A stretch of DNA of 64,000 nucleotides, taken from the IMG/VR virus record IMGVR_UViG_3300038393_002515. One strand, 5' to 3'. How positions within the stretch are numbered: position 1 is the first letter of the stretch; each line of letters starts with the position of its first letter. This stretch comes from a virus. Under the pieces are notes generated by a model. The model worked only from the letters and a program-made list of their open reading frames with translations, searched no databases and was not told the origin of the DNA. A program made the translations under genes and the position numbers. Of this stretch, positions 3,223 to 42,778 are shown piece after piece.

Positions 3223-3462
3223 ATGCCCCACCCCGACGACGAGACCGACGAGGAGCAGGCCCGCACCGCGCGGCTCCTGCGCATCCCGGCCGATCGGATC
3301 GCCTACTACAGCGCCGAGACCGTGTGCGCCTGGCTCCTCGCCCGCAACGAGCAGCACCGCACCCGACTGCGCGCCGCCTGCCAGGAGTTGCGGGCAGCGG
3401 CCGCCCAGGAGCGTTGCGCCCTTGCTGCGCTCTACCGCGCCACCGCCCAGGAGCGCCCCTGA
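3223..3462 (+). CDS. hypothetical protein (79 aa)
   Basis: ATG after the box. The stop overlaps the next start (TGATG). Confidence 0.6.
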   Translation: MPHPDDETDEEQARTARLLRIPADRIAYYSAETVCAWLLARNEQHRTRLRAACQELRAAAAQERCALAALYRATAQERP

Positions 3463-5204: not shown

Positions 5205-5227
5205 CCTGCGAAAACACAGGAATTCAC

Positions 5228-5276
5228 CGAACCCCACCCTAACGCAGCTATAGATGCGCTAGGGTGGGGTTCGTTG
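5228..5276. promoter_or_regulatory. P1: 19-bp inverted repeat (18/19) whose right arm is the conserved promoter-like element, with -10-like TAGGGT at 5260-5265
   Basis: CGAACCCCACCCTAACGCA (5228-5246) pairs with TGCGCTAGGGTGGGGTTCG (5255-5273). The left arm read on the minus strand is identical to the P2 core TGCGTTAGGGTGGGGTTCG. Confidence 0.55.
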
Positions 5277-5346
5277 GCAGCGAGACCGGGTGTCCGACCC
5301 GTCCTCTACGCTGCCCTCCACCACCCCGCCTAGGAGAACAAGACAC

Positions 5347-6225
5347 ATGGGACTCCCGAAGGTCGACGAGGCCACCACCATCGCCCTGGAAGCCATCCGC
5401 GACGCCGCCCCCGCCCTGCTCACCGTGACCGAGGTCTCCAAGAAGGTCGCCTCGGCCGCCGACGTCTCCGTCGGCACCGCCCGCAGCCGGGTGCGCGCCG
5501 CCTTCGAGGCGGGCGGGCTCCTCGAACTCAAGCCCTGGTCGCGGAAGTTCTTCATCGAGCTGCCCGGCGCGGAGGCCGCCGGTCTCGGCCCGTTCTACAT
5601 CGCCCGCGAGTGGACGGGGACCGGCCGCGAACACCGCCACGTGATCACCACCGACGACAGCGCGATGCGCCCCAGCTCCTACGGCCCCGGCAACACCACG
5701 TACGTGGCCGACCCCGAGCAGATCCGCGAGTACGTCCAGCGGCTCACCGACGAGAAGAAGGCCAAGGAGGACGCCGAGGCCGAGGCTTGGAGGAACGACA
5801 GGAAGGCGCAGGTCAAGGAGATCGCCCGTCGCTTCCCCGGACTGCGCAAGGCGCTGCGCATGCTCGAACTTCTCGGCACCTTCGCCAACCCGACCGACGC
5901 GCACGGCTCCATGCTGACCGCCAGGGTGTACCTGGACACCTCCCGCCACCAGGCTCAGGACGCGCCGGTCTCCGAGCGGAACTCGAACATGGTGATCCAG
6001 GTGGAGGGTGACGAGAACGTGGGCATCCTGCAGACGATCCTGAGCGCCGGGCTCTCCTCCCTCCTCGCGGAACAGCCCGTCACCCACTGCAAGCACTGCT
6101 CGGGCCGCATCCTGTACGCCCAGGCCAGGTTCGGCACCGGCTGGTGGCACGTCGACACCACCAACGGCTCCTGCGGCGAGGACACCGACACCAAGGCCGA
6201 GCCCGCCGAGACCGAGGAGAACTGA
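5347..6225 (+). CDS. hypothetical protein (292 aa) with a C-terminal CxxC...WWH...C zinc-ribbon-like motif
   Basis: ATG 5347 lies 8 nt after AGGAGA. The C-terminus reads HCKHCSGRILYAQARFGTGWWHVDTTNGSC. GTG 5290 is an alternative start. Confidence 0.65.
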   Translation: MGLPKVDEATTIALEAIRDAAPALLTVTEVSKKVASAADVSVGTARSRVRAAFEAGGLLELKPWSRKFFIELPGAEAAGLGPFYIAREWTGTGREHRHVITTDDSAMRPSSYGPGNTTYVADPEQIREYVQRLTDEKKAKEDAEAEAWRNDRKAQVKEIARRFPGLRKALRMLELLGTFANPTDAHGSMLTARVYLDTSRHQAQDAPVSERNSNMVIQVEGDENVGILQTILSAGLSSLLAEQPVTHCKHCSGRILYAQARFGTGWWHVDTTNGSCGEDTDTKAEPAETEEN

Positions 6226-6228
6226 CCC

Positions 6229-6660
6229 ATGCGCACGTCCGCCACCTGCCCCGGCTGCAGGCAGTACCCCGTCACCGTCACGCCGACCGGCGCGCTGCGC
6301 GCCCACGACTCCGGCAACGGCATCCCGTGCCCCGGCAAGGGCTTCCGCCTCGACCAGCCCATCTACCCGCAGCTCATCAAGCTGTGGGGCTGGGAGACCG
6401 GCCAGAAGCTCATGAAGCAGGAGTTCCCCGAGTGGGTGTCGCCGATGGACAGCGGCCCGCACCCTATCGGCACCCTGCAGAAGCTGGTCCTCAAGGCGTA
6501 CCCCAGCGCTGACGCCTTCGGGTACACCAGCGGCCGGGGCATCACCTTCTGCGTCAGCAAGCGCTGGTACTTCGCCACGCCGGACGGCCACGTCGGCGAG
6601 AAGTACCCCACCCGCGTCGCCGCCGCCGACGCCGCCGACGAGTACCTCAAGGAGAAGTGA
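6229..6660 (+). CDS. hypothetical protein (143 aa) with an N-terminal CPxC...RAH...CP zinc-ribbon-like motif
   Basis: The motif TCPGCRQYPVTVTPTGALRAHDSGNGIPCPGKG is shared with the 13637-14227 product. Confidence 0.65.
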   Translation: MRTSATCPGCRQYPVTVTPTGALRAHDSGNGIPCPGKGFRLDQPIYPQLIKLWGWETGQKLMKQEFPEWVSPMDSGPHPIGTLQKLVLKAYPSADAFGYTSGRGITFCVSKRWYFATPDGHVGEKYPTRVAAADAADEYLKEK

Positions 6661-6662
6661 TC

Positions 6663-7019
6663 ATGGACGACAACCGCCTGCACTCCGACGAGGACCGCGA
6701 GGACCGCGAGGACGCCCTGCCCAAGTGGGCGCAGCTCAAGCTCGACCTGTACCGGCGGCGCCTCACCGACGAGCGGAAGATCAACGCCGAGCTCAGCGGT
6801 GACGTCGAGGAGAGCGACACCCTCATCCGGTGGCACGGCATCCGCGCCGACCACCTGCTGCCCCGCCGCGCCGAGATCACCTTCCTCCCCGACCTCACCC
6901 GCCCGGACCACGCGATCGACTGCACCATGCGCGACGGCGTGCTGCGCGTCCACGGCAGCAGGACCCTGGTCATCAAGCCGAGCGTGACCAACGCCCTCAC
7001 CATCGAGCTGGAGAAGTGA
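6663..7019 (+). CDS. hypothetical protein (118 aa)
   Basis: ATG lies in the conserved junction GGAGAAGTGATCATG. Confidence 0.6.
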   Translation: MDDNRLHSDEDREDREDALPKWAQLKLDLYRRRLTDERKINAELSGDVEESDTLIRWHGIRADHLLPRRAEITFLPDLTRPDHAIDCTMRDGVLRVHGSRTLVIKPSVTNALTIELEK

Positions 7020-7021
7020 TC

Positions 7022-7261
7022 ATGGCCGACGACTTCGCCCCGCGCGCCGCTGCCGATGTCACCGACGAACTCGTCCAACAGGCCCTCGGCATCGTGGAGG
7101 GCTGGTACGACGAGGGCCCGATCGACTGGGAGGACGTCTGGGACCGGCTGGAGCGCCGCGTCCTCGACGACGGCCGGGGCATCGACCTTGGCGAGGACCT
7201 CGGCTCGCCCGCCCTCAAGGCCCTCCAGCGCCGCGTGCGCGCCGCCCGCAAGGAGAACTGA
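7022..7261 (+). CDS. hypothetical acidic protein (79 aa)
   Basis: ATG lies in the identical junction GGAGAAGTGATCATG. Only the 3' part of track ORF 6830-7261 looks coding. Confidence 0.6.
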   Translation: MADDFAPRAAADVTDELVQQALGIVEGWYDEGPIDWEDVWDRLERRVLDDGRGIDLGEDLGSPALKALQRRVRAARKEN

Positions 7262-7263
7262 TC

Positions 7264-7551
7264 ATGTCGTTCAGCATGAGCACCCGCCGGGACGGGCGGC
7301 TGGGAGCCAAGACCGGTGCGCAGCCGGTCACGGTGTGGGGGTCCGACGCGGACGGCGGGGAGGACGGTCTGCCGGTCGTCGTCGCCCGTGGCTCGGTCCG
7401 CGTTCACCGCGACGGCCCCGAACTGTGCACCGTCACGACCCCTGAGGGCGTGATGTTCGAGGCCGCCGAGACGTCCTGGGCGCCGCTGCGCGGCGAGTGG
7501 ACGATCGAGGCCCGCAGGATCGATCCGGCCCCGGGGAGTCCCGGTGAGTGA
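7264..7551 (+). CDS. hypothetical protein (95 aa)
   Basis: ATG lies in the junction GGAGAACTGATCATG. Confidence 0.55.
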   Translation: MSFSMSTRRDGRLGAKTGAQPVTVWGSDADGGEDGLPVVVARGSVRVHRDGPELCTVTTPEGVMFEAAETSWAPLRGEWTIEARRIDPAPGSPGE

Positions 7552-7771
7552 GCCCAGGATCATCCAGCCGGTCAGGCCGACCCGGCCGAGCTACAGTCTG
7601 CGGGAGGCCGAGTTGCTGATGCGGATTCTCCTGAGCAGCGGGCATCCGCAGGCCGAGCATCTGGTCACCAAGCTGGTCACCGCCGCTGAACAGCCCGGGG
7701 CGTACATAGAGTTGATGGAGCGTGTGCGGGCCTCGGTCATCTTGAATCACGAAGGGCCTCGCACCCCGTAG
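7544..7771 (+). CDS. hypothetical protein (75 aa)
   Basis: GTG start overlaps the upstream gene end. Coding-like composition. Confidence 0.5.
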   Translation: MSEPRIIQPVRPTRPSYSLREAELLMRILLSSGHPQAEHLVTKLVTAAEQPGAYIELMERVRASVILNHEGPRTP

Positions 7772-7808
7772 ACACGCATCTATGTGTGCGTTAGGGTGGG
7801 GTTCGTTC
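7769..7808 (+). promoter_or_regulatory. P2: sigma-70/HrdB-like promoter, -35 TAGACA (7769-7774), 17-nt spacer, -10 TAGGGT (7792-7797)
   Basis: Geometry read directly. The 33-nt GCATCTATGTGTGCGTTAGGGTGGGGTTCGTTC is conserved with P1, P3 and P4. Confidence 0.6.
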
Positions 7809-7885
7809 TCAGGTGCTCAGGCCCGCCAGCCGGGCACCTGGTGACACCACCACCAGCCTCGACCCGCCACGAGGAGAACCTCACC

Positions 7886-8089
7886 ATGCCCATGCGTGAC
7901 TTCCTGGGCTTCCTGCCCATACTCCCGTCCGCGCTGACGCCCGCCGTCTGGCTGTGGCTGCACCACCACTACGCCGACACGCCCCAGGGCCGCGCCCTGT
8001 GCAGCAACCTGACCGTCCTGTACCTGGTCCTCACCGTCATCCTGGCCCTCGTCGGCCGCGCCTGGTCGGCCCCGAGGAGCGAGCGGTGA
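7886..8089 (+). CDS. small membrane protein (67 aa, 2 predicted TM)
   Basis: ATG follows GAGGAGAA. Hydrophobic segments are FLGFLPILPSALTPAVWLWL and LTVLYLVLTVILALVG. Confidence 0.6.
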   Translation: MPMRDFLGFLPILPSALTPAVWLWLHHHYADTPQGRALCSNLTVLYLVLTVILALVGRAWSAPRSER

Positions 8090-8424
8090 GCGACGACGGC
8101 CGCAGAGAGTGGGTCGAAGCCAACCGCGCCCGCTTCGCCGAACTCCTCATCCCCCGCGCGTTCCTGGCCGCCAGCGCCGTCGCGGACGAGCCCGACGCCC
8201 CCGAGGAGCTGAACGCCCGGCTCGGCGTCGCCTCCGGGTGCCGCCCGGCCGCCGGGGACTGCGTGCGCATCGACTGGCCCGTCGACCTTCTGACGCCACT
8301 CGCCGACTACGCCGAGGACTGCGCCCGTGCCTGGAGCACCGGCCGCACCTGGCGCACCGCGCACATCGCCGCCGGTGCCCTCGCCACCCACACCCGCCAC
8401 ATGATCGCCAGGGAGTCCCAGTGA
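8086..8424 (+). CDS. hypothetical protein (112 aa)
   Basis: GTG overlaps the upstream stop (GTGA). Coding-like composition. Confidence 0.55.
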   Translation: MSDDGRREWVEANRARFAELLIPRAFLAASAVADEPDAPEELNARLGVASGCRPAAGDCVRIDWPVDLLTPLADYAEDCARAWSTGRTWRTAHIAAGALATHTRHMIARESQ

Positions 8425-8744
8425 TGCAGCCCATCACCATGGAGGAGGCCGCCGACCTCGGCGTGCCGGAGTGCTTCTCCGCCGAGTTCGCCTTCCACGA
8501 GCGCAACGGGACGCTGCCGCCGTACGCGGGGCCGGTCGAACGGGACTGGGGCAGCGACGCCTACGACCTCTACCCCGAGCCGCCGGTGTACGAACCGCAT
8601 CCCGACGAGGCCCCGGAGCGCAAGCCGTGCCAGGGCCCGGCGCGCACCTTCGAGTTCCTCGGGATGCCGGAGCGCTGGCGCGCTCACGAAGGGGGCTGCT
8701 GGGACCTGCACGTCCCCAGCGAGTCCTGCCCGCCGCCGTTCTGA
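8424..8744 (+). CDS. hypothetical protein (106 aa)
   Basis: ATG overlaps the upstream TGA. Only the 3' part of track ORF 8109-8744 looks coding. Confidence 0.55.
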   Translation: MQPITMEEAADLGVPECFSAEFAFHERNGTLPPYAGPVERDWGSDAYDLYPEPPVYEPHPDEAPERKPCQGPARTFEFLGMPERWRAHEGGCWDLHVPSESCPPPF

Positions 8745-8753
8745 GAGGACGCC

Positions 8754-9217
<464 letters not shown>

Positions 9218-9335
9218 CGCCCGGTCCGCCCCGCCTGTACCACGGGGCCTCGGGATTCACCATCCGGGGCGGACACCATGCGCGCCGCCGCTACGGTGCG
9301 CAGCAGCAACACCCGTATCCCAAGGGGGGATTCAC

Positions 9336-9818
9336 ATGAAGGCCACCAAGCTGAACCGGTACTTCTTCCCGGTCATCACGCTCGCCGCCACGGTGCTGCT
9401 CACCGCGTGCGAGGCGGGCACCGGCAGCGACGGCTCCAGCCCGGCGCCGACGAAGACGGTCACCATGTCCCCGTCGCCGACGTCGGCCGACGACGCCCTC
9501 AAGAAGATCCAGGAGCACAACAAGAAGGGCCAGGACGACCTGAAGAAGGCGATCGAGGAGGCCTCGAAGTCGGCCGCCGCCGCCGCTCCCGAGACCGGCA
9601 CGCTGCCGGACTTCGTCGGCATGGACCTGCAGGACGCCCAGGACTCCGCGCAGGCCGCCGGGTTCTACAACCTGCGCGACAAGGACGCCTCCGGCCAGGG
9701 CCGGTTCCAGATCCTCGACCACGACTGGAAGGTCTGCTCCCAGGAGCCCGCCCCCGGCAGCCACGGCCTGGAGATCACCGTGACCATGTACGCGGTCAAG
9801 AAGTACGAGTCCTGCTGA
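9336..9818 (+). CDS. secreted lipoprotein (160 aa)
   Basis: Signal peptide with lipobox LLTAC (Cys25). The N-terminus MKATKLNRYFFP is paralogous to the next gene. Confidence 0.75.
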   Translation: MKATKLNRYFFPVITLAATVLLTACEAGTGSDGSSPAPTKTVTMSPSPTSADDALKKIQEHNKKGQDDLKKAIEEASKSAAAAAPETGTLPDFVGMDLQDAQDSAQAAGFYNLRDKDASGQGRFQILDHDWKVCSQEPAPGSHGLEITVTMYAVKKYESC

Positions 9819-9856
9819 ACCGCCACCAACCACCACATCCCTAGGGGGGATCGACC

Positions 9857-10219
9857 GTGAAGGTCACCAAGCTCAACCGCTACCTCCTTCCGCCCGCCGC
9901 TGTCGCGGCCGCCGCGCTGCTCCTCAGCGCCTGCAGCGGCATGGAGGCCAAGCCGGACCGGATCGCCGCCGACGTGATGTGCCACGACTTCGTCAAGGAC
10001 AAGCTCAAGAGCCCCGGCACCGCGAAGTTCGCCGGGGTCACCGAGTACAAGTACAAGACCCTGCACGCCACCAAGCCGTACAAGTTCCGCATCACCTCCT
10101 GGGTCGACAGCCAGAACAGCTTCGGCGGCGTCGTGCGCAACCCCTACGTGTGCACCGTGTCCACCAAGGACGGCAAGAACTGGCACCTGGACGACCTGCA
10201 GTTCACCCACCCGAACTGA
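9857..10219 (+). CDS. secreted lipoprotein (120 aa), paralogous leader
   Basis: Begins MKVTKLNRYLLP with lipobox LLSAC (Cys26). The upstream CCCTAGGGGGGAT mirrors CCCAAGGGGGGAT of the previous gene. Confidence 0.75.
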   Translation: MKVTKLNRYLLPPAAVAAAALLLSACSGMEAKPDRIAADVMCHDFVKDKLKSPGTAKFAGVTEYKYKTLHATKPYKFRITSWVDSQNSFGGVVRNPYVCTVSTKDGKNWHLDDLQFTHPN

Positions 10220-10234
10220 CCAAGGAGACCTCTC

Positions 10235-10585
10235 ATGGGACTGAACTCCCGCAAGGCCCAGATCGTCATGGGCGCGCTGCCCATCGTGACCCTGAGCCTG
10301 TTCATCTTCTTCCCGTTCGTGTGGCGGGCGCTGAAGACCAGGAGGGCCAGCGACATCCGTCTGGCCGTCCTGTTCAGCGCGGCCGAGCTGGCGGGCCTGG
10401 TGGGCCTCTCGCTCTCGCCGACGACTCACAAGGACGGCCCGGACAACCTGATCGCCATGCTGATGTGGGTCGTGATCCTCGCCGCGACCGTCACGGCCGC
10501 CTACCTGTACCGTCCGCTCAGCAAGGACGAGCGGATGGACCAGGCCGCCCGTGACGCCCGGCCCGGCTCCTCCTACCTGAACTGA
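10235..10585 (+). CDS. membrane protein (116 aa, ~3 TM)
   Basis: Hydrophobic segments are IVMGALPIVTLSLFIFFPFVW, LAVLFSAAELAGLVGLSL and LIAMLMWVVILAATVTAAYL. Confidence 0.65.
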   Translation: MGLNSRKAQIVMGALPIVTLSLFIFFPFVWRALKTRRASDIRLAVLFSAAELAGLVGLSLSPTTHKDGPDNLIAMLMWVVILAATVTAAYLYRPLSKDERMDQAARDARPGSSYLN

Positions 10586-10595
10586 CCCGCCCCGG

Positions 10596-10625
10596 CGGCC
10601 GCGCCCGACACAATGGGCGCGGCCG
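10596..10625 (+). terminator. Hairpin CGGCCGCGCCC / GGGCGCGGCCG followed by TCCTCTTCC
   Basis: 11-bp perfect stem with an 8-nt loop, directly after the stop at 10585. Confidence 0.55.
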
Positions 10626-10650
10626 TCCTCTTCCCGCCTAGGAGAACCTC

Positions 10651-11268
10651 ATGCACAACCTGCTCAACATGTCCGTCATGGAGCGCCGGGGTGACTACTC
10701 GGAGCAGTTCGCGCTGACGGAGGAGGCCCCACGAGTCCTGGACCCCAAGGGGGGCGGGAAGTCCTTCCAGCCGGACATGATCAAGATCGTGTTCTTCTGC
10801 TGGGACGACACCGGGTGGAAGGTCAGCTTCGTCTTCCTGAGCGGCAAGCTGATCCTGACCGACGGCACGGTCGGCAAGAAGCGGCAGCAGCTCGACTACA
10901 ACGACCCGCTCGACCCGGATCACGTCGAGGAGGACCGGGCGCCGGAGTGGGTGCGCGAGATCGCCTCCGAGCGGCTGGCGCTCCTGCGCGGCGAGAGTGC
11001 ACCCGCCGCCGAGCGCGCCACCATGAGCGGGCCCGAGGCGTACTCGAAGGCGCTGGAGTGCTTCGCCGAGTCTGACAAGGTGACGCGGACGTACGAGGAG
11101 GAGGCGCCCGAGGCCGACCGGCTCATCCGGTTGGGCGCCGGGTACGCCGCCCTCGCCTCGGCCGCCGCGCAGGCCCTGGGTGCCACGGGGAAGCTCACGC
11201 CGGAGCAGTGCGAGGAGTGGCAGCACGTGGCCGGGGCGATCGGTGACCGGGAGACGGTCCATGACTGA
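10651..11268 (+). CDS. hypothetical protein (205 aa)
   Basis: ATG lies 7 nt after TAGGAGAA. Coding-like composition. Confidence 0.65.
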   Translation: MHNLLNMSVMERRGDYSEQFALTEEAPRVLDPKGGGKSFQPDMIKIVFFCWDDTGWKVSFVFLSGKLILTDGTVGKKRQQLDYNDPLDPDHVEEDRAPEWVREIASERLALLRGESAPAAERATMSGPEAYSKALECFAESDKVTRTYEEEAPEADRLIRLGAGYAALASAAAQALGATGKLTPEQCEEWQHVAGAIGDRETVHD

Positions 11269-11833
11269 CAAGCCCACCTGCGGAGCCATGGGCTTCCTGC
11301 GGGCGCAGGAGGTCTGGTGCACCCGGCGGCCGCACAAGCACCGCGACCACCAGAACGAGGCTGGCGACAGCTGGCCCAGCTACGAAGGGGAGAACGACGA
11401 GATGCTGGTCATCACCACCGACGACCTGCGCAGGCTGCTGGACGGGCCCAGCGAGAGGCCGGTGCTCTACGTGGCTCGTGACAGCACCACCGGCGAGCCG
11501 GTTCAGCTGGCCGTCTGGGACGACGCCTACGTCTCCGACGCCGACATCATCGTCCGTCAGCACGAGCTGGTCGACGCCCTCGGCGGCCCGAACCACCCCG
11601 ACGGCGTGACCCAGGACGCCCTGGAGCACCTGCTGGAGGGCTACCAGGCCACCGTCGACGAGATCGAGGAGGCCAGCGAGGTCCCCGACGACGCCTGTGT
11701 CGACGCCGACGACAACGTCCACCCCGAGCACGACTACCCGCCGGAGGGTCAGGGCAGCGAGTGCCGCCGGTGCGGCGCCGAGGCCGACGATTCCATGGAG
11801 CCGGACGGCGTCTACGACGGAGAAATCCGCTGA
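11261..11833 (+). CDS. hypothetical acidic protein (190 aa)
   Basis: ATG 11261 overlaps the upstream end. The sequence before it in track ORF 11180-11833 does not look coding. Confidence 0.6.
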   Translation: MTDKPTCGAMGFLRAQEVWCTRRPHKHRDHQNEAGDSWPSYEGENDEMLVITTDDLRRLLDGPSERPVLYVARDSTTGEPVQLAVWDDAYVSDADIIVRQHELVDALGGPNHPDGVTQDALEHLLEGYQATVDEIEEASEVPDDACVDADDNVHPEHDYPPEGQGSECRRCGAEADDSMEPDGVYDGEIR

Positions 11834-11847
11834 TCGGATAGCACAAG

Positions 11848-11880
11848 GCCCGCCCCTTCGCTGGGGCGGGCTTTCGCGCT
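11848..11880 (+). terminator. Rho-independent-type terminator: GCCCGCCCC-TTCGCT-GGGGCGGGC followed by TTTCGCGCTTT
   Basis: 9-bp perfect GC stem with a 6-nt loop and a T-rich tail. Confidence 0.7.
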
Positions 11881-11892
11881 TTCCGGGATCCG

Positions 11893-11932
11893 TAGACATG
11901 CATCTATGGATACGTTAGGGTGAGATTCACCG
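11893..11932 (+). promoter_or_regulatory. P3: -35 TAGACA (11893-11898), 17-nt spacer, -10 TAGGGT (11916-11921)
   Basis: Same architecture and sequence family as P2 (CGTAGACAyGCATCTATG...CGTTAGGGTG). Confidence 0.6.
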
Positions 11933-11952
11933 CCCAGGAGAAGGAGAGGCAC

Positions 11953-12381
11953 ATGCCCGCCGACGCACTGACCATGGACACTCCCCACTGGAGCCGAGAC
12001 GACGTCACCACGGTCCTCGTCGAAAAGCTCGGCTTCACGCCCGACCCCAACGCCCCCGGCGTCAACTTCCTCCGGGGCAAGAACCTCCGGCTGAGCATCG
12101 TGGACGGCTACGGCAAGGTCCAGCTGGCGCACGACAACCCGCTGTGGGCCGCGACCTTCACCTCGTCCGTGCCCGCGAGCATCATCCTCAAGGCGGTCCG
12201 CCAGGCCGCCACCGAGGACGACTACGTCTACTGCCGACACTGCGCCCTGCGGATCGCGAAGGTCCCGCAAGACAGGGTGAAGAGTGGGTCGAGCGAGGTC
12301 CACTGGTGGCACCCCGACACCGGCAAGGGTGCCTGCTCCGTCGGCGGCACCGTGGCCGAGCCCGCACCCGCAGAGGACTGA
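11953..12381 (+). CDS. hypothetical protein (142 aa) with a C-terminal CxxC...WWH...C motif
   Basis: ATG follows GGAGAAGGAGAGG. YCRHCALRIAKVPQDRVKSGSSEVHWWHPDTGKGAC parallels the C-terminus of the 5347-6225 product. Confidence 0.65.
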   Translation: MPADALTMDTPHWSRDDVTTVLVEKLGFTPDPNAPGVNFLRGKNLRLSIVDGYGKVQLAHDNPLWAATFTSSVPASIILKAVRQAATEDDYVYCRHCALRIAKVPQDRVKSGSSEVHWWHPDTGKGACSVGGTVAEPAPAED

Positions 12382-12406
12382 GTGACCAACTGGAGGCGAA
12401 GCGCTG

Positions 12407-12712
12407 ATGTTCATGGTGCCCATTCCCGAGGACTGGGATCCCGCCGAGCACGGCTGGCGCCCCGCCGACAGGAGGGTTGATCTGTCGGGCACCACGGAGT
12501 GGTTGCACCGATGGGCGCCGCCGGTACGGTTCCCCGCCTCGCTGACCATCTTCCGCAACCCGTTCACGGGCCAGCGGGTCGCCTGGTACGGACCGCTGGC
12601 CACCGAAGACGCGGAACAGATACGCCAGGGCGCGCTGCTTGCCGAGATCGGCATCACCTCGGCCGATTGGGGTCCGGAGGACCGCCAGCCGGAGATGGGC
12701 CGACAAAGATAG
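12407..12712 (+). CDS. hypothetical protein (101 aa)
   Basis: Trp-rich, coding-like composition. Last gene before the terminator cluster. Confidence 0.55.
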   Translation: MFMVPIPEDWDPAEHGWRPADRRVDLSGTTEWLHRWAPPVRFPASLTIFRNPFTGQRVAWYGPLATEDAEQIRQGALLAEIGITSADWGPEDRQPEMGRQR

Positions 12713-12725
12713 TAACGAGTAAGCA

Positions 12726-12742
12726 AAAAACCGCATTTCCGT
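12726..12742 (+). repeat. 17-nt AAAAACCGCATTTCCGT, copy 1 of 2
   Basis: Exact second copy at 35642-35658. Both are followed by a TTTCCGTTGA...TGAAG(C/G)GG hairpin-like segment. Confidence 0.7.
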
Positions 12743-12775
12743 TGATCCGCTGAAGCGGACTTCGGCAAGATAAGT

Positions 12776-12814
12776 GACGGCCGCCACCACTGACCGCCAT
12801 CAGCGGCGGCCGTC
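12776..12814 (+). terminator. Hairpin GACGGCCGCC / GGCGGCCGTC (10-bp perfect, 19-nt loop) followed by CCCGTTT
   Basis: Read directly. Closes the P3 cassette. Confidence 0.55.
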
Positions 12815-12850
12815 CCCGTTTACCTCTTGACCCGCCACAGGAGGCCCCCA

Positions 12851-13129
12851 ATGTCACAGATGACCGCCACCGTCGGACCGTTGGTCCGCCTCGGCGGAAC
12901 GATCCGCCTGACCGCCCGGCGCAGCGACGGCTGCACCATCGAGATGGAGCTGACCCGGGGCAGGGAGCGCGGGCATGTCACCCACGCCGTGACCAGCGAG
13001 GACGGCCGCCTGGTGTCCGTGGCGGCTCGGTCGTGGCCGCTGACCGGCGCCGAGCCGAAGCTGGCCGCCGACGTCCGTGACGCCATCCAGATCGCCGAGA
13101 AAGGCCTCGCCGAGGCCTGCGCGCGCTAG
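12851..13129 (+). CDS. hypothetical protein (92 aa)
   Basis: ATG 12851 lies 6 nt after AGGAGG. The track ORF starts at TTG 12827. Confidence 0.55.
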   Translation: MSQMTATVGPLVRLGGTIRLTARRSDGCTIEMELTRGRERGHVTHAVTSEDGRLVSVAARSWPLTGAEPKLAADVRDAIQIAEKGLAEACAR

Positions 13130-13185
13130 CCTCGAACTGCCCGCCAGGCACCCCTTCCGTTCCGACTCACCGCCAGGAGTCCCCC

Positions 13186-13557
13186 ATGGCCGCCAAGTCA
13201 TCGACCCGCAGGCTGACCGCCGCCGAGCGTCAGGCCCTGCTCCACGCCGACCCGGCCACCGGTCGGATCAACGCATCCGGCTTCAACTTCCGCGAGGAGT
13301 TGCGCCGCAAGGGCTACGCCGAGTCCTCGCATGGAACCCTGTATCTGACCGAGTACGGCTGGCGGCTGCACGCCCGGCTGAAGGAGGAGCACCGGGAGTT
13401 CGCCGTCGAGGGTGTGCCCTGGGTGAAGATCCAGGAGATCACCGACCTGTACCTGTTGACCGGGCTCGGCATCGGCGAGATCTCACGGCGCACCCGTGTG
13501 ACCGGAGAAGGGGTCAGGGCCGCGCTCGCCTTTCGCAAGGTCCTTCCCGCCGCCTGA
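13186..13557 (+). CDS. putative DNA-binding protein (123 aa) with a C-terminal HTH
   Basis: The segment ITDLYLLTGLGIGEISRRTRVTGEGVRAAL has an HTH pattern. Confidence 0.5.
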   Translation: MAAKSSTRRLTAAERQALLHADPATGRINASGFNFREELRRKGYAESSHGTLYLTEYGWRLHARLKEEHREFAVEGVPWVKIQEITDLYLLTGLGIGEISRRTRVTGEGVRAALAFRKVLPAA

Positions 13558-13578
13558 AAGGTGCCCTCGCCACCCCTC

Positions 13579-13611
13579 GCATCCATAGATGCGTTAGGGT
13601 GAGAGTTGTTG
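13579..13611 (+). promoter_or_regulatory. P4: conserved element GCATCCATAGATGCGTTAGGGTGAGAGTTGTTG, -10-like TAGGGT at 13595-13600
   Basis: Contains the near-palindrome GCATCCATAGATGC. The -35 position (ACCCCT) is poor. Confidence 0.5.
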
Positions 13612-13636
13612 TCTGAAGCCGCCCTGGGAGCCCGCC

Positions 13637-14227
13637 ATGAGGATGTCCGACCTGAAGCCGCTGGAGCTGTACGCCACCAAGGCCCCCTCCCGCGCTGTGA
13701 GCCGCCGCTCCACCGGTCCGGTGCTGCTGCTGTCCACCCGCCTGTGGGATCTCGTTCCCGGGCCTCAGGGAAGTTCCATCGCTCCTGCGCCCGAGGACGC
13801 CCCGAGGTCGGAGGTCCTGAGCAGTATGGGAGCCCGTCGTGGGCTGCTCGTCGTTCAGGCGGCCCCTCTCGGTCTCTACACCGGCGCCCTCGACGAGCAG
13901 GAGATCGCCTCCCAGTTGTCCGCCATCCCCAAGAAGGGTGCCCGGAAGCTGTCCCGTCTCGTGCGCCGGGACGCTCTCGACCGCGCCCTGGAAGAGTTCC
14001 GCCAGAGCCTGCCCGAGACGCTCATGATCAACGTGGTGCTCCTGCAGTCCGTCGTGGAGCCCTTGAGCAAGCCCGAGAAGTACCCGTGCCCCGCCTGCCC
14101 GAACGACGTCAGCCTCGACGCCGTCGGCCGTATCCGGGCCCACGAGGCAGCAGACGGCACGCGATGCCCCGCCACCCGCACGTACATGCCCAGCAAGGAG
14201 CGCAAGACCAACCTCCTCGCGCCCTGA
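13637..14227 (+). CDS. hypothetical protein (196 aa) with a CPxCP...RAH...CP motif
   Basis: YPCPACPNDVSLDAVGRIRAHEAADGTRCPATR parallels the 6229-6660 product. Confidence 0.65.
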   Translation: MRMSDLKPLELYATKAPSRAVSRRSTGPVLLLSTRLWDLVPGPQGSSIAPAPEDAPRSEVLSSMGARRGLLVVQAAPLGLYTGALDEQEIASQLSAIPKKGARKLSRLVRRDALDRALEEFRQSLPETLMINVVLLQSVVEPLSKPEKYPCPACPNDVSLDAVGRIRAHEAADGTRCPATRTYMPSKERKTNLLAP

Positions 14228-15941: not shown

Positions 15942-15978
15942 GCATATGCCTGGCCAAGGTGTTATGTGCGTGTAGAGT
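15942..15978 (+). promoter_or_regulatory. P5 (weak variant): palindrome GCATATGC plus TGTGCGTGTAGAGTG, with -10-like TAGAGT at 15973-15978
   Basis: Partial similarity to P2 (TGTGTGCGTTAGGGTG). The -35 is poor. Confidence 0.35.
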
Positions 15979-35694: not shown

Positions 35695-36267
35695 TTACAG
35701 GCCCAGCATGAAAACGGGTCCGGCAACGACGGCGCCGAGGATGGCACCGGCGATCGTCTGGGGGACGGTGTGGTCCTTGAGGTGCTGCCGAGACCAGGCC
35801 ACGAGCGGGATGAGCGCGGCGGAGAGAATCCACCAGGGGCCGTAGAGCAGGCCGAGCATGGCGAGTGCGCCCGACAGGACGGACGTGTGGAAGCTGATCT
35901 TGGTGTACTTCGTGATGGGCCACAGAAGGGCGACGGTGGCCAGCATGGCGCCGACCATGGACAGGACCGGCTTCGGGGCCCCGCCGACGACCATGAGCGT
36001 CAGGCAGGTCAGGACGGACAGGACGATGACCGGGATGACGACCATCCGGCGGGACCGCTCGGGGACGTGCCGGTCGGCGAAGGTCTTCTTCTCGCCGGTG
36101 AGGACGATGAACATGATCGGTATGACGGCGCAGAAGACTATGGCCACCGCACCCCAGCCGAGGCCGGACCAGCCGTAGTTCACGCCGACGAGCATGCACA
36201 GGACGAAGATGACGTTCTTGGGGTCGACGAAGTCGGTCAGGGCTCGTGCGGCCTGGGTGCGGGTCAC
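35695..36267 (-). CDS. PAP2-like (divergent) integral membrane protein (190 aa, ~6 TM)
   Basis: ISFHTS and WSRQHLKDHTVPQTIAGAILG resemble the PAP2 motifs PSGH and SRxxxxxHxxxD, with D replaced by Q. Overlaps the upstream gene by 4 nt. Confidence 0.55.
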   Translation of the reverse strand: MTRTQAARALTDFVDPKNVIFVLCMLVGVNYGWSGLGWGAVAIVFCAVIPIMFIVLTGEKKTFADRHVPERSRRMVVIPVIVLSVLTCLTLMVVGGAPKPVLSMVGAMLATVALLWPITKYTKISFHTSVLSGALAMLGLLYGPWWILSAALIPLVAWSRQHLKDHTVPQTIAGAILGAVVAGPVFMLGL

Positions 36268-37532
36268 GCGTGCACTCCGGTGGAAAGTCTGCGGTACATG
36301 AGCCCCAGCTGAGTCGTGTCGCGGATGGACCGGCCGACGGGGAGGAGCGTGTTCGTGGCGATGAAGGGGTCGGTGGTGCCGGTGAGAGTCGCCAGCGGCT
36401 GGATGGCCACCGGTTCGCCGTCGAACGGCTTCTCTCCGTTCCGCTTAAGCCGCATCGCTTCGCGGAGCAGGTAGGCGGCCACCGCGTGCTCCGGGAGCTT
36501 CAGCGCCCGGCCCGCAGCCCCGGCGCGGCTGTGGAGGTCCGGCGGCACGTAGTAGGCGAGGTTGAGGGCGGCATCGAGAATCTCGTTGACCCTCCTGCGA
36601 AGCCGGGTGTCCAGGTCTCGCCAGTCCCAGTACTCGCGCAGGTGGCTGGTCCGCTTGGGCCGCCGGTGTGCCGGGCAGTCGTAGATGGCGGTGGGTACCG
36701 CGTCGGTGAGGACGGCCCACAGCGGGCGCAGGTCGTTGATGGCTCCGTGGGCCTTCACTATCTCGTTCAGACGCTCCCACTTCGGGGCCGCGCCTCCGAC
36801 GACGACGAGGAGGATGCAGGTGACGAGGCAGAAGTTCGAGGTGAAGTCGACGAAGTGGTCGCCGCCGAGGAACGGTTTGTCGCACAGGCGGGTGATCAGG
36901 TACCCGGAGCGGAGGATCCCGTACGCCGAGCCGATCGAGCAGCCGAGGGCGACGACCTGCATGCCGTACTTGAAGGGGCCCGGGGCGGCGGCGCGGGCGG
37001 CGTCGAGGCACATCAGGGTCGCGCAGATCAGGCCGAAGACGAGGTAGGCGTAGAAGAGCAGGAGGTGGAGGCTGCCCCAGAGGTGGCCTGCCTGGACGAA
37101 GATGAAGTCGGCGTCGTCCTGGTTTCCCGTCCGTCGCTGGGCGAGGGGGAAGATGGCGGTGATGACGGCGATGGCGGCCCAGGTGATGATGCGTCGGGGG
37201 TTGCTGCTGATGAGCTGCCGGTAGGTGGGCTCCCGGCGGCCGTCCAACCGGCCGGGGACGACATCGGTCACCCAGTGCAGAAGGAGGGCAACGGCGGCGA
37301 TCCCCGTGAGGTGCTTGGCGAGGGTGGCGATGTCGTCCACGCCGGTGAGGTGGTAGAGGAAGTCCCCGACCGCCTGGATCTTGGTGACCATCGAGATGTC
37401 GAGGGCCAGGAAGACCATAAAGAGGGTCCGGGAGCGGGGGTTGCGGTAGGCGGCGGGTCCCCTGCGGATGACTTCCTCAGTGAGGAGGACGACGACGATC
37501 CAGGCGGGAAGATCGGAAGGTGTGGCGGGCAC
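36264..37532 (-). CDS. 422-aa polytopic membrane protein with a soluble C-terminal domain; resembles the actinobacterial MAB_1171c-type family as far as I recall
   Basis: About 8 hydrophobic segments in the N-terminal 250 aa. The C-terminal region reads LRPLWAVLTDAVP...LDTRLRRRVNEILDAALNL. The family assignment is from memory and unverified. Confidence 0.6.
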   Translation of the reverse strand: MPATPSDLPAWIVVVLLTEEVIRRGPAAYRNPRSRTLFMVFLALDISMVTKIQAVGDFLYHLTGVDDIATLAKHLTGIAAVALLLHWVTDVVPGRLDGRREPTYRQLISSNPRRIITWAAIAVITAIFPLAQRRTGNQDDADFIFVQAGHLWGSLHLLLFYAYLVFGLICATLMCLDAARAAAPGPFKYGMQVVALGCSIGSAYGILRSGYLITRLCDKPFLGGDHFVDFTSNFCLVTCILLVVVGGAAPKWERLNEIVKAHGAINDLRPLWAVLTDAVPTAIYDCPAHRRPKRTSHLREYWDWRDLDTRLRRRVNEILDAALNLAYYVPPDLHSRAGAAGRALKLPEHAVAAYLLREAMRLKRNGEKPFDGEPVAIQPLATLTGTTDPFIATNTLLPVGRSIRDTTQLGLMYRRLSTGVHA

Positions 37533-37545
37533 CGGTTCTCATCTC

Positions 37546-38157
37546 TCAGGTGTCGAGACTTGCTCTCATGTTGTTTTCGAGGAGGGTTGCCCCACGGGGG
37601 GCGTGCTTGGCCATCCAGGTCTCGGCGTAGTACCCGAAGTCCTCGGCTTTGCGTTCGCGGTCCTCGTTGCTGGTGCCGTCGGCGCGGCACTGGACGCCAG
37701 CGGCCGCGAGGGAGTCTGACAGGAGGGCCGCCGATCCGCTGCACACCCCCCTCAGGAGGCGGAGGACGGCGGCGAGGTCGAGCCGGTTGGGCTCGTCTCC
37801 GTTGACCATGTGACCAAGCTCGTGACCGAGGACGTGGTGGTACTGCACAGGCGGGATCGTGGGGTGGGCCCACACCAGGTCGGCGTCCGGGGTGGGGTAC
37901 CACATGCCGCTCGGCCCGTTCGGTGAGGTCATCCGGGAGTCGCGGCTCAGGATGAGCTTGCGGCCGCGTACCTGCTCTACATAAGCGCGCAGCAGGTCCT
38001 CAACGGTCCAGGGAGACGTGGGAAGCGCCAGTCCCGTCAGCGCCTGCCCCCAGGTCCCCTTCAGGCCGCTCCGGTTCCGCATCAGTCCCATCCAAGCCCC
38101 CAGTTGATCACTAAGGCCGCCATTTACGCCACTCAGCGTAAGGCAAGGGGCTGACAA
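37546..38157 (-). CDS. ImmA/IrrE-family zinc metallopeptidase (203 aa; alternative ATG start at 38091)
   Basis: HExxH in the typical context YHHVLGHELGHMVNGDEP. Immediately downstream of an XRE HTH gene. Confidence 0.8.
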   Translation of the reverse strand: MSAPCLTLSGVNGGLSDQLGAWMGLMRNRSGLKGTWGQALTGLALPTSPWTVEDLLRAYVEQVRGRKLILSRDSRMTSPNGPSGMWYPTPDADLVWAHPTIPPVQYHHVLGHELGHMVNGDEPNRLDLAAVLRLLRGVCSGSAALLSDSLAAAGVQCRADGTSNEDRERKAEDFGYYAETWMAKHAPRGATLLENNMRASLDT

Positions 38158-38162
38158 TGGCC

Positions 38163-38738
38163 CTACCCGGTCTGGTCCTCCTGGGCCCCCTGTAGGCCGA
38201 GCAGCGCGAGACGCAGGATGGCTCTTGCCTGCCCGGAGTCCGCCCCGTCGAGCCCTCGGAAGAGGGCGCCCATCAACGCCGTGCCCTGGGTACTCTCATC
38301 GCTACCCTCCGTAGTGCTGTCGAGCTTCTGGATGGCCTTGGCCGCTTGCACGCCGAGCTCGATGAGTTCCACTTCGCGCTCGATCTGTCTGGTTCTCTCC
38401 GTGGCGTCGGTGCCGACGCGCCAGTAGTCCGTCTCGACCCCGAAGAACAGACTGAGCGCCTCGATGATGCTGAACGGCGGGTTCGTCCGCTTGCCGTCCT
38501 TCAGGTCGCTCAGGTACTGGCGGTTGACGGCGTCGGACTCTGCTCGAATCATCTCGCACGCCTGTGCGATTTCCTCCATACTGGCACCGGCGTCCTGGAG
38601 CTCCTGGGTCACCCGCGAAATCTTCTTGTCGCGGTACAACCCTGAGGCCCTCGCGGCGATCTCACTCAACGGGTACGTCTGCCCGTCCGGTCCGCGCTTG
38701 AGGTCACGCAACTTGCGGAACTTCTCACCGAGCGGCAT
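38163..38738 (-). CDS. XRE-family helix-turn-helix transcriptional regulator (191 aa)
   Basis: The N-terminus is LGEKFRKLRDL...YPLSEIAARASG...LSDLKDGKRTNPPFSIIEALSLFFGVETDYW, a Cro/C1-type HTH. The C-terminal domain is extended. Confidence 0.8.
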   Translation of the reverse strand: MPLGEKFRKLRDLKRGPDGQTYPLSEIAARASGLYRDKKISRVTQELQDAGASMEEIAQACEMIRAESDAVNRQYLSDLKDGKRTNPPFSIIEALSLFFGVETDYWRVGTDATERTRQIEREVELIELGVQAAKAIQKLDSTTEGSDESTQGTALMGALFRGLDGADSGQARAILRLALLGLQGAQEDQTG

Positions 38739-39478: not shown

Positions 39479-39509
39479 GCGACAAACTCTTAATAAGTCT
39501 ATTTGTCGC
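39479..39509. repeat. 8-bp inverted repeat GCGACAAA / TTTGTCGC around the AT-rich 15-mer CTCTTAATAAGTCTA
   Basis: This is the most AT-rich spot I noticed in the window. It lies in the 320-nt non-coding leader before the head-gene block. Confidence 0.6.
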
Positions 39510-39684
39510 CAAAGCGAGGTTCACGCCTCCGCTTCGGCAACAAACCGGTCGCCCAACCTGAATTGTGCCTCAACCCTTGGCCACAGGTTCCCCCTTCACG
39601 AGGCCTATACAACTCCGTATCGAACCCGTTGCCGCCAACGCCCTCCTGCCCGCCCAGCGCACGAGACCTCCTGTTCGTCACACC

Positions 39685-39708
39685 CCCTCCGCCCCCAAGG
39701 AGCGAGGG
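39685..39708 (+). promoter_or_regulatory. Late motif variant CCAAGGAGCGA (39695-39705) in a 5-bp CCCTC/GAGGG hairpin
   Basis: Degenerate copy, 40 nt upstream of GTG 39746. Confidence 0.3.
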
Positions 39709-39745
39709 CGCACCATGCGCCGCCGCCCGCACAGGAGGACCCGGT

Positions 39746-42700: not shown

Positions 42701-42778
42701 CAGCTGCTCACCCCCGCCGAGCTGCAGGGCGAGTCTTCCGTCCCTCCGCCTGCTGTCCCGCAGCTGTCCCGGAGCTGA
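39746..42778 (+). CDS. 1010-aa fusion protein: N-terminal prohead-protease-like domain, central helical domain of unknown function, Asp/Pro/Gly-rich region and two C-terminal zinc ribbons
   Basis: GTG 39746 follows AGGAGGA. The N-terminal domain reads FVNHVNDNHRRARGVIIDA...IDRTSMGCDVERSVCSACGNEARTPTEYCSHIPH, which recalls T4 gp21-type prohead proteases. Also carries CPVCGDKDTFDGIQCQICG and CPHCGF...CPNCRKAQ. Confidence 0.6.
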   Translation: MLKFATAQIIAASLGDQQRITRAAHRAVFQYEARPGFLYVRSRAISSRCNDNFDEFPAEEIEKSYKTFVGKPVFVNHVNDNHRRARGVIIDAALHRDRNPDGTPDTWAEVLMEIDAVRFPKLAKAILAGHIDRTSMGCDVERSVCSACGNEARTPTEYCSHIPHLKGKRIFRATASGKKVGELVRETCFGLRFFENSVLVEPPADPTAHFLGVDSSGLGKAASKSAAIDYSAFEDNDDLEADDDGEDTAPQPKPAYPASHAKSPVPHVPFEGTTHDHQRRQDAVQHARPFTPLKPSLNGLQATAAAKKPAPKAAEPEVDEYGTPKPKRGQPYEPAGDHPWYKQVPLHHSNIVDHWDKATDEEKDSGMRWYSDAHHVAKAIARLDPRIKTDEEAAHKGAGVLSAYSPRTNWPQNMFNAAHSFHRQAAVRPLKDDPDKPAHVTTMGMHADKAQRIMDGEHHQPVLNSPKTQDFAHLIEHGGYEPQTEEEKKSGAERRHSGRVVIDRHALSVAAGRRITDVENDAHQGFPGASSGKHARHYYEHAANTYRNAAAAISEKEGKPVAAHQVQAVTWLVRQRLNTAEDQANANASAKNLGAGRNKAEENIKGHWKDFAGEHTPELKEKGNSHVARLIDATYINDDGTIRAIAYGEIKAPADVDTLREENCPVCGDKDTFDGIQCQICGFINPPEQFRDPDLDKAKTLDLRKQIVDPSLVDDNGELQRVNDDGTGMPQEDGMPGDEEQQLGPDGQPLDEDGPQMVDPEQLDENGLPPSPWGDQTLDGTMQGAPTFSDRNGDGMIQPDEIDPDGNVNVQQNMMVDPEQGGQAGPRELPGRARDRTGDPFTPGPDMPRLQGPEGPEDGLDDEDTFQAGPGMGAPQEPILAHPGDYTGDESETPHWSWNRDVDEEPQAPNEDEDPQDPRRRRLGMSAAPRTPKDGQPNDGAPDLSCPHCGFGADATAPQTQDMGNPQGATDGIVAGDVCPNCRKAQLLTPAELQGESSVPPPAVPQLSRS

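Follow-up and report, generated by a model that had tools for sequence, protein, structure and literature searches.

Repeated promoter-operator modules are a known type of phage control system, with described cases in phage P1, mycobacteriophage L5 and phage T4. The subject here is a set of promoter elements of this general kind in IMGVR_UViG_3300038393_002515, a 64,000-nucleotide (nt) stretch of viral DNA (the window), in which four copies of a 33-nt motif with a palindromic spacer, designated copies P1 to P4, each stand ahead of a cassette of small genes. The C1 operators of phage P1 are asymmetric 17-mers dispersed over its genome, and the inverted repeat of its Lpa system reportedly sits at position -22, a placement credited to Lehnherr in 1992 and Lobocka in 2004. 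The gp71 stoperators of L5 are asymmetric 13-mers that lie mostly outside promoters and block elongation. In T4-type phages, the PeSL cassettes said to have been described by Arbiol et al. in 2010 reportedly pair an early promoter with a stem-loop, and their recombination is said to have been shown experimentally. Phage P1 also has 11 Lpa-dependent late promoters, each with a 9-base-pair (bp) inverted repeat; the Lpa box lies just upstream of the -10 box (PMC10695390).

Like the phage-plasmid P1, the source of the window appears to be a large myovirus-type plasmid prophage with dozens of transcription units, in which one short site is repeated at many promoters and one protein would switch all of them; as at the Lpa promoters, an inverted repeat is positioned just upstream of the -10 box. 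Unlike the Lpa promoters, which have no -35 box and serve late genes, the present copies mostly have a -35 and none of them serves structural genes; a homologue of C1 or Lpa is not recognised. The likeness to the T4-type cassettes lies in near-identical promoters and stem-loops that flank ORFans in a plastic myovirus region with mosaic junctions; the PeSLs differ as AT-rich sigma-70 promoters without a spacer dyad, and recombination is here read from homology breakpoints. L5 is comparable as an actinobacteriophage with about 25-30 copies of a short intergenic site, a strong bias to one orientation and genome-wide control by a single repressor, whereas the site described here is symmetric and always fused to a -10 box. 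The new features are the symmetric spacer site within near-consensus Streptomyces promoters, the fusion of some copies to a hairpin, and the presence of the module on conjugative elements and plasmids.

The favored reading, to which a probability of roughly 50% is given as a whole, is that the copies form one promoter family whose spacer would hold the site of a dimeric repressor, that a variant of the element is combined with a hairpin, and that the modules may act as joints between gene cassettes.

The four 33-mers, beginning at 5244, 7776, 11900 and 13579, carry exactly the letters given in a preliminary description of the window, and copies P2 and P3 both show the TAGACA box, 17-nt spacer and TAGGGT box that it had listed. 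A search with the 23-nt consensus GCATCTATAGATGCGTTAGGGTG, allowing up to three mismatches, returns five oriented matches in the 64-kilobase (kb) window versus 0.00 in shuffled sequence; the fifth is the minus-strand mirror at copy P1 (5235-5257), the mirror-image -10 module noticed earlier. With a 31-nt weight matrix the copies score 41-47 bits, and all other window positions reach at most 9.4 bits, the range of shuffled sequence. Two classes are distinguished: class a comprises P2, P3 and most copies elsewhere, and class b comprises P1, weakly P4, and syntenic homologues in three lineages. The parts of the four copies and of their surroundings are as follows.

5224-5277, plus strand: copy P1, class-b element (by sequence, consensus, weight matrix and fold); C-rich left arm AACCCCACCCTAAC, dyad GCAGCTATAGATGC at 5244-5257, -10 box TAGGGT at 5260-5265, then GGGG
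5276-5346, plus strand: leader of copy P1; ribosome-binding site (RBS) AGGAG at 5332-5336, ATG at 5347 of a 292-amino-acid (aa) ORFan
7769-7808, plus strand: copy P2, class-a element (by sequence, consensus and weight matrix); -35 box TAGACA at 7769-7774, dyad GCATCTATGTGTGC at 7776-7789, -10 box TAGGGT at 7792-7797, then GGGGTTCG
7810-7840, plus strand: leader hairpin of copy P2, CAGGTGC...GCACCTG
11845-11884, plus strand: intrinsic terminator of cassette 2; GC-rich stem-loop at about 11845-11873 and the T-rich CTTTCGCGCTTTCC, fold z = -5.0
11893-11932, plus strand: copy P3, class-a element (by sequence, consensus and weight matrix); -35 box TAGACA at 11893-11898, dyad GCATCTATGGATAC at 11900-11913, -10 box TAGGGT at 11916-11921
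13563-13611, plus strand: copy P4, degenerate class-b element (by sequence, consensus, weight matrix and fold); left arm GCCACCCCTC, dyad GCATCCATAGATGC at 13579-13592, -10 box TAGGGT at 13595-13600, ATG at 13637

Copy P1 has no -35 hexamer, the right half of the P2 dyad is degenerate, and the stop codon of the gene at 7544-7771 is the TAG of the P2 TAGACA box. Copy P3 has a short leader to its RBS and to the ATG at 11953; the good terminator previously placed before it at 11848-11880 is confirmed by its fold and lies directly 5' of the P3 -35 box. From element start to start codon, the distances are 53 nt for P3, 58 nt for P4 and 103-116 nt for P1 and P2, the longer-distance copies being those with leader hairpins. 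The leader stem-loop of P1 (GGCAGCG...CGCTGCC) spans 5276-5315, and that of P2 is retained in the related genome L001 with one pair strengthened (U.G to U-A); both may be stabilizers of the mRNA 5' end or regulatory. Small co-directional open reading frames (ORFs) do follow each copy as the preliminary description had it, with starts corrected to 5347, 7886/7892, 11953 and 13637; the CGCC-AGGAG that it placed between element and start codon is present but is no part of the element, since CCGCCCAGGAG also stands at internal operon junctions, and belongs to the general ribosome-binding context of the phage. The "weaker relative" proposed at 15942-15978 has no dyad and a sub-chance matrix score, and falls outside the family. 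The segment 15866-15978 holds a hairpin followed by another promoter-like site, TGTGCGTG-TAGAGT-G at about 15960-15978, which heads the next block (16049 onward) and is kept in all relatives; a homology block begins at 15883. A generic promoter scan with the E. coli consensus calls none of the elements, as expected for boxes of the TAGGGT type.

Although real, the four copies are not the whole set but the last four of at least nine in this phage, a count made on the plus strand of the window and of the 9.8 kb of source contig upstream of it (L306). The five upstream copies share the identical 22-mer GCATCTATGGATGCGTTAGGGT and are identical over about 40 nt. The sequence cTTGAC(T/C)cat stands ahead of four of them, and the one at L306 6984 lacks a -35 hexamer; each heads a single gene of 430-650 aa whose start codon lies 47-66 nt later. 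All nine copies are intergenic and oriented with the genes that follow. The closest annotated relative of the phage is pRLB1-9.1 of Streptomyces sp. RLB1-9 (NZ_CP041653.1; circular, 154,158 bp), which matches the first 24 kb of the window at 82% identity over 55%; here a flavor-neutral pattern (GCA-N8-TGC-N2-TA..GT) finds 18 copies versus 0.16 expected. Every one of the 18 is on the coding strand and in an annotated intergenic gap, at 28-149 nt from the start codon (median about 61). They are confined to 64.8-114.3 kb, a 50-kb ORFan block, with no copy in the replication block (24-64 kb) or the structural blocks (119-154 kb and 0-24 kb), and the structural region of the window (18.6-35.6 kb) is likewise free of copies. 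A search of relatives shows the elements conserved in pRLB1-9.1, L001, L071, L217, L227, L228 and the 18933 contigs, and further IMG/VR contigs of the same family also have the module. In the single-gene units of L306 (1243-8460) and of pRLB1-9.1 (80-97 kb), a conserved CCCGCC box stands 8-14 nt past the -10 hexamer, close to where transcription is predicted to begin.

Nearly invariant in the per-genome alignments are both 5-bp half-sites of the dyad, the -10 hexamer and the G(G)G that follows it. The hexamer is TAGGGT in 9/9 plus-strand copies of this phage, in keeping with the TANNNT rule, and TAGAGT in 17 of the 18 copies of pRLB1-9.1, the remaining one (at 83025) being TAGTGT. Six of the nine copies here have a -35 box, four of them TTGAC(T/C) with a 19-nt spacer and the other two TAGACA with a 17-nt spacer; in pRLB1-9.1 about 14-16 of the 18 have one. 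Two registers therefore occur overall, TTGAC(A/T/C) with a 19-nt spacer and TAGACA with a 17-nt spacer, and about a quarter of the copies have no -35 (P1, P4 and L306 6984; 103335 and 113617 in pRLB1-9.1). Among 3,570 mapped transcription starts of Streptomyces coelicolor, 80% have a -10 TANNNT and 59% a -35 NTGACC; spacers are mostly 15-20 nt and leaders most often 30-39 nt (PMC4895711). Because the elements match these start-derived rules and the comparative evidence agrees, it is highly probable that they constitute a family of promoters; the preliminary description is thereby upheld in taking them for HrdB-like Streptomyces promoters at the head of co-directional cassettes, and in treating them as one coordinately built family. 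Host RNA polymerase carrying the principal (HrdB-type) sigma factor would read each element from a predicted start about 7 nt beyond the -10 box, so that the 5' leaders would be about 20-85 nt long, with a G-rich discriminator after TAGGGT.

Three other promoter types were considered and set aside. An extracytoplasmic function (ECF) promoter, with GCAAC as its -35 box, is ruled out by spacing, and a PafBC/RecA-NDp promoter by having the TAGGGT box alone in common with the elements. A MerR-type promoter does not describe the family, in which the spacer is 19 nt in the TTGACA subset and 17 nt in the TAGACA subset; no MerR-family protein is recognized.

The palindrome of the spacer is a 5-N4-5 dyad, GCAWC-N4-GWTGC, whose register is constant, 2 nt ahead of the -10 box; counted from the predicted start, it spans about -28 to -15, with its center at about -21.5. 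Across the 18 diverged copies of pRLB1-9.1 the half-sites and the -10 box are nearly invariant, whereas the 4-bp center and the 2 bp before the -10 vary freely, and information content is correspondingly high at both half-sites and low at the center. Between four and seven of seven pairs in the dyad are complementary in each copy. Exact dyads number 15 in pRLB1-9.1, all followed by NN-TAGAGT, versus 0.5 dyads expected by chance, and stand-alone dyads in the window amount to chance-level extra hits only. The flavor of the half-sites changes symmetrically between lineages, as listed here.

This phage, L001 and L071: GCATC-tatg-GATGC
Contigs 18933_4 and 18933_7: GCATC-tcaa-GATGC
pRLB1-9.1 and close relatives: GCAAC-N4-GTTGC
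L227 and L228: GCATATCGATGTGC

The general form with W follows from the occurrence of both A and T at half-site position 4 within pRLB1-9.1. As a nucleic acid structure, the class-a stem (5 bp with a 4-nt loop) is too weak, and copy P2 folds no better than shuffled sequence. Conserved half-sites, a free center and the fixed register with the -10 box argue instead for the site of a dimeric protein, so that protein binding is, on balance, the better-supported role for the dyad. What stands of the operator proposed in the preliminary description is thus a selected dyad site, shown by invariant half-sites and a drifting center over 18 copies; the nature of its ligand is a more tentative matter. 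The LexA box of Gram-positive bacteria and actinobacteria is GAAC-N4-GTTC, and some plasmid prophages use host LexA directly. The dyad has the same 5-N4-5 geometry, and the GCAAC-N4-GTTGC of pRLB1-9.1 contains the AAC-N4-GTT core; where GAAC has its critical G, however, the dyad has C, and the half-site of this phage is GCATC. A LexA (Cheo) box was accordingly rejected as the identity of the site, the half-sites of the dyad being GCATC or GCAAC.

A dimeric DNA-binding protein would bind the dyad within the promoter spacer; if a repressor, it would block access to the spacer and shut down all of the promoters at once, whether during the plasmid-prophage state or following an early burst. Repression is the more economical proposal, since the -35 and -10 boxes of most copies are near consensus as they stand, and it is put forward tentatively, at a little under even confidence. 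The alternative that survives best, although unlikely, is that the dyad serves an activator, in the manner of the phage P1 late promoters: a phage-encoded dimer would recruit or adapt the host RNA polymerase, and the promoters would be silent until that dimer is made. Such an activator would suit the Lpa-like geometry of a dyad centered at about -21.5, the quarter or so of copies without a -35, and the long 19-nt spacing of TTGACA in many others. It is opposed by the good -35 of most copies and by the closeness of TTGACA or TAGACA plus TAG(R)(R)T to the classical Streptomyces consensus; because most hexamers are so near consensus, RNA polymerase should need no help. Moreover, no copy lies 5' of a structural (late) gene, those of the pRLB1-9.1 family keeping within 64.8-114.3 kb, and nothing resembling Lpa is recognised among the proteins.

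In the class-b variant, a C-rich arm takes the place of the -35 box and is complementary to (A)GGGTGGGG, a segment overlapping the 3' part of the -10 box and the discriminator; pairing of this arm extends the dyad into a long hairpin. Copy P1 is a 46-nt near-perfect palindrome, and 5224-5277 folds at -41.6 kcal/mol (z = -6.2); its syntenic site in pRLB1-9.1 also folds (z = -4.7). The fold of P4 is not significant in the window copy and has z = -2.6 in the L001 homologue. A consensus fold of 12 class-b copies contains 15 pairs, four of them with double-sided changes. Copy P1 had been described as either a 19-bp hairpin or a divergent promoter pair. The left arm stays complementary to GGGTGGGG in three lineages and the reverse TANNNT box is not conserved outside the P1 of the window, which favors the hairpin; the divergent pair is rejected as the general meaning of class b.

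Copy P1, and less clearly P4, is probably a terminator fused to a promoter: RNA arriving from upstream would fold into the long hairpin, so that one piece of DNA would terminate or insulate the unit before it and also initiate the unit after it. A generic terminator scan does not call the class-b copies. Coupling of promoters to terminators is documented, as is the additional use of terminator palindromes as binding sites for transcription factors (Fletcher et al., bioRxiv 10.64898/2026.08.19.745784). The cases of Fletcher et al. resemble copy P3, with its terminator abutting the -35 box, and in concept copy P1; they differ in that their stem-loop supplies the -35 box and their T-tract the spacer, whereas in copy P1 the entire promoter, -10 box included, lies within the hairpin, and the U-tract is poor.

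The genes headed by the elements sit between the replication genes and the structural genes, and are fast-evolving and of unknown function. In the window they form four cassettes.

5347-7771, plus strand: cassette 1, six small genes including DUF7239
7886-11833, plus strand: cassette 2, about ten small genes, ending at the terminator
11953-13557, plus strand: cassette 3, four small genes, the first of which is swapped for an unrelated gene in L001
13637-15847, plus strand: cassette 4, five genes, up to the hairpin and TAGAGT site

Within one genome the promoter-proximal genes are unrelated to one another, which rules out duplication of the promoters along with paralogous genes. Between this phage and pRLB1-9.1, the promoter core persists although the identity of promoter-proximal orthologues is only 32-60%; in contrast, the dCTP deaminase and the ParB-like protein of the same genome pair are 76-86% identical. 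Several boundaries of homology fall at the elements. In L001, the terminator and P3 form a 94-nt island (window 11847-11940, 86% identity) between non-homologous genes, and a homology block ends at 13612, at the end of P4; the homology blocks of pRLB1-9.1 and L217 begin at the P2 -35 box (7762) and inside P1 (5257), and in L228 copy P2 with its leader is an isolated island (7769-7883). Homology breakpoints also favor gene boundaries generally, so these examples do not prove specificity for the element. The modules would thus appear to be conserved joints for cassette exchange between related phages, a proposal that the breakpoints establish in part. As separate observations, the first genes after P1 (5347-6225) and P3 (11953-12381) have in common a C-terminal domain of about 65 aa at 34% identity, both with a match to phrog_15923, and a 432-aa gene 5' of the window ends in DUF6011.

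Exchange of this kind also underlies the second alternative, which is improbable: that no trans-acting factor exists, the elements being strong host promoters homogenized by recombination and gene conversion, with the palindrome mattering only as a nucleic acid structure (a hairpin terminator or insulator, or a cruciform) and as a homology patch for the exchange of cassettes, as in the PeSL cassettes of T4-type phages. The identity of the five upstream copies over about 40 nt, the uniform -10 hexamers within a genome, the coincidence of homology breakpoints with elements, and the strong class-b hairpins, for which terminator-promoter DNA offers a precedent (10.64898/2026.08.19.745784), would all be accommodated. 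The copies of pRLB1-9.1, however, have diverged except at the half-sites and the -10 box, which indicates position-specific selection rather than homogenization; the class-a stem is too weak to serve as a structure, with P2 no better than shuffled; and two ordinary Streptomyces plasmids (L310 4001-4030; L311 4001-4025) keep the dyad with a degenerate -10.

Two further repeated motifs mark other gene junctions of the window. The first, CCCCAGGAGCGCCCC, occurs six times (200-218, 606-624, 995-1013, 1063-1081, 1530-1548 and 3446-3462), mostly at or near the start codons of packed genes in the promoter-less operon 5' of copy P1. It is found again in pRLB1-9.1 at 98.2-101.2 kb and resembles a conserved junction for translational coupling or ribosome binding. 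The second, CCAAGGGGTGA, occurs five times (25811, 30930, 31919, 53302 and 55013); where checked, it lies just 5' of structural-type gene starts (portal, 25840; 30937), other copies precede the called ORF starts 53328 and 55043, and its ribosome-binding context is unlike the AGGAG of the early cassettes.

Five proteins had been put forward as the regulator, four as helix-turn-helix (HTH) proteins and the one at 38163 as an XRE protein, and none is sustained in that role. For the protein at 13186 there is no HTH match, and the homologue in L001 resembles that of pRLB1-9.1 though the operators differ; that at 16049 also has no HTH hit, is 73% identical to its pRLB1-9.1 homologue, and shows no change that tracks operator flavor. 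At 16348 there is a marginal match to HTH_37 (E = 0.0055), the putative recognition helix of which is invariant across the GCATC-tatg and GCAAC lineages. The protein at 3462 has a sub-threshold sigma-70 region 4 hit (E = 2e-4) and no homologue in pRLB1-9.1. The best candidate is the EspR-like HTH protein at 38163 (PDB 3qwg, E = 2e-4), which has no operator at its own gene; its homologues comprise three sequences only and are the most diverged of the candidates, at 58% and 46% identity. The WhiJ-like regulator of pRLB1-9.1 was rejected as the binder, a different palindrome, GAGAATTCTC, being found in its own intergenic region. The EspR-like gene (38163-38738) lies in the sole minus-strand island within the phage part of the window, 35695-38738, together with genes for a PAP2-like membrane protein, a DUF6545/MAB_1171c-type transporter and a small ORF; at 58-60% identity to pRLB1-9.1 the island is more diverged than its surroundings, and it may be a lysogeny or immunity module.

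The phage itself has a G+C content of 69% over the window, in which tRNA and Rfam scans give no match. Its portal protein belongs to phrog_2833 (E = 8e-140) and is 37-40% identical to the portals of 135-160-kb actinobacterial myoviruses; at the DNA level, deposited phages gave no match by megablast, blastn or a 42-mer, and in the literature library searched there was no account of this phage group or its promoters. Metagenome contigs as long as 155 kb contain the window sequence as well. A prophage with an integrase at 36264-37532 was ruled out, the gene there being of the DUF6545/MAB_1171c membrane protein type. In databases pRLB1-9.1 is labeled a non-mobilizable plasmid. By its annotation, in which phage genes stand beside plasmid genes, it is a myovirus-like phage-plasmid: it encodes an HK97 capsid protein, baseplate J and a homologue of the window portal, the replication proteins DnaB and Pol III alpha, ParA, a giant ParB-like protein and two tyrosine recombinases, as well as WhiB, several HTH proteins and a small sigma-70 region 4 protein. 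It also has an ATP-grasp cluster for a ribosomally synthesized and post-translationally modified peptide (RiPP; tgmA) and a WhiJ-like HTH/DUF397/ATPase trio. By analogy with this relative, the source of the window would be a Streptomyces phage of about 155 kb and of the phage-plasmid type, living as a plasmid prophage. The homologue of the giant ParB-like protein is encoded at 39503-42778 (1091 aa), where the Pfam match is DUF7178; its ParB-family label is the annotation of the pRLB1-9.1 homologue, 76-78% identical.

RK2 KorB acts via palindromic operators dispersed over its replicon. A ParB-family protein reading the dyad in this manner, and coupling partition or silencing to the promoters, is very unlikely here, even though the window encodes the 1091-aa ParB-like protein and the palindromic sites are many and dispersed on a plasmid-like replicon. 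The 2-nt distance between dyad and -10 box is strictly kept and the dyad never stands alone, which a centromere would not need; it does not resemble parS, and no ParB-like gene is found within 8 kb of the non-phage Streptomyces loci that have the module.

These loci come from a single scan of 185,579 species genomes with a pattern limited to the flavor of this phage. Most hits are chance hits, and about 18-20 Streptomyces contigs match far beyond the specified bases (acGCATCTATGGATGCGTTAGGGTGGGG, 35-43 bits), the module being found once each in at least 18 Streptomyces genomes. The loci are L134, L135, L136, L142, L143, L145, L157, L161, L163, L167, L173, L185, L188, L189, L191, L194, L195 and L202, and their contexts are conjugative-element modules (TraB/FtsK with GntR regulators), HA-domain helicases on short contigs or at contig ends, and a transposase neighborhood. 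Except at L071, itself a phage-plasmid relative, no protein within 8 kb of these loci is common to the window or to the whole of pRLB1-9.1. An Rfam search of 19 Streptomyces loci with the element gave an unrelated tRNA only, and several copies precede conserved stretches without a clear ORF or Rfam match. An origin of the chromosomal copies as clustered regularly interspaced short palindromic repeat (CRISPR) spacers was rejected, the copies having no flanking repeats and flanks that are homologous within context families. A string search of the literature for the element matched only an unrelated E. coli triplex repeat. At L143, L173 and L188, in the conjugative-element group, the element is flanked closely by GTGTAGCTACAC, a palindrome of GntR type, about 12 nt upstream, and by a RecA-NDp-like motif, TTGTCAGTG-N8-TATGGC, about 20 nt downstream, which suggests layered control of that promoter.

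From this distribution, the module might be a regulatory currency common to unrelated Streptomyces mobile elements, with one protein, encoded by the host or by an element, reading all sites, although this is judged improbable. If true, a resident element could silence the 9-18 early cassettes of an incoming phage, a form of repressor-based defense, or an infecting phage could titrate the protein and so trigger transfer of a conjugative element. The weakest alternative, promoters for a phage-encoded sigma factor or RNA polymerase, could draw on conservation well beyond the two hexamers and on the small sigma-70 region 4 protein of pRLB1-9.1, but is highly improbable, as hexamers and spacing match the host consensus, the same module occurs in non-phage contexts of at least 18 Streptomyces genomes, at loci with no protein in common with this phage, and a complete sigma factor or single-subunit polymerase is not recognised.

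Several observations weigh against the promoter family with a dimeric repressor, hairpin variant and cassette joints as a whole. The two -35 registers and the quarter or so of copies without a -35 would fit an activator standing in for the -35 contact as well, and the uniformity of the -10 box within a genome could be due to concerted evolution and not to selection by a factor. Half-site position 4 is both A and T within pRLB1-9.1, hence the switch between lineages may not be a true change of specificity; in the homologues of 13186, 16049, 16348 and 38163 the tracking of operator flavor gives no usable signal. A stand-alone dyad at a regulator gene, which would reveal autoregulation, was found at none in the window or in pRLB1-9.1. 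For the hairpin, the class-b consensus fold has a covariation term of about zero, its right arm being constrained by the promoter, and 3' of the stems there is only a weak U-rich run (UUCGUUG-like). Finally, the plasmid-prophage lifestyle is taken from a relative rather than from this genome.

Gene regulation is essentially uncharacterized in the large actinobacterial myoviruses and in Streptomyces phage-plasmids, nearly all of whose genes are hypothetical. A single 40-bp module standing over 9-18 ORFan cassettes gives access to the genes likeliest to act on the host, which could be genes for takeover, anti-defense or lysogenic conversion. Direct tests are possible, since the strain that carries pRLB1-9.1, Streptomyces sp. 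RLB1-9, is a recorded isolate, and the module could provide a compact, portable, near-consensus Streptomyces promoter with a built-in switch. Its presence on conjugative elements and plasmids raises the possibility of cross-talk between phages and mobile DNA in Streptomyces.

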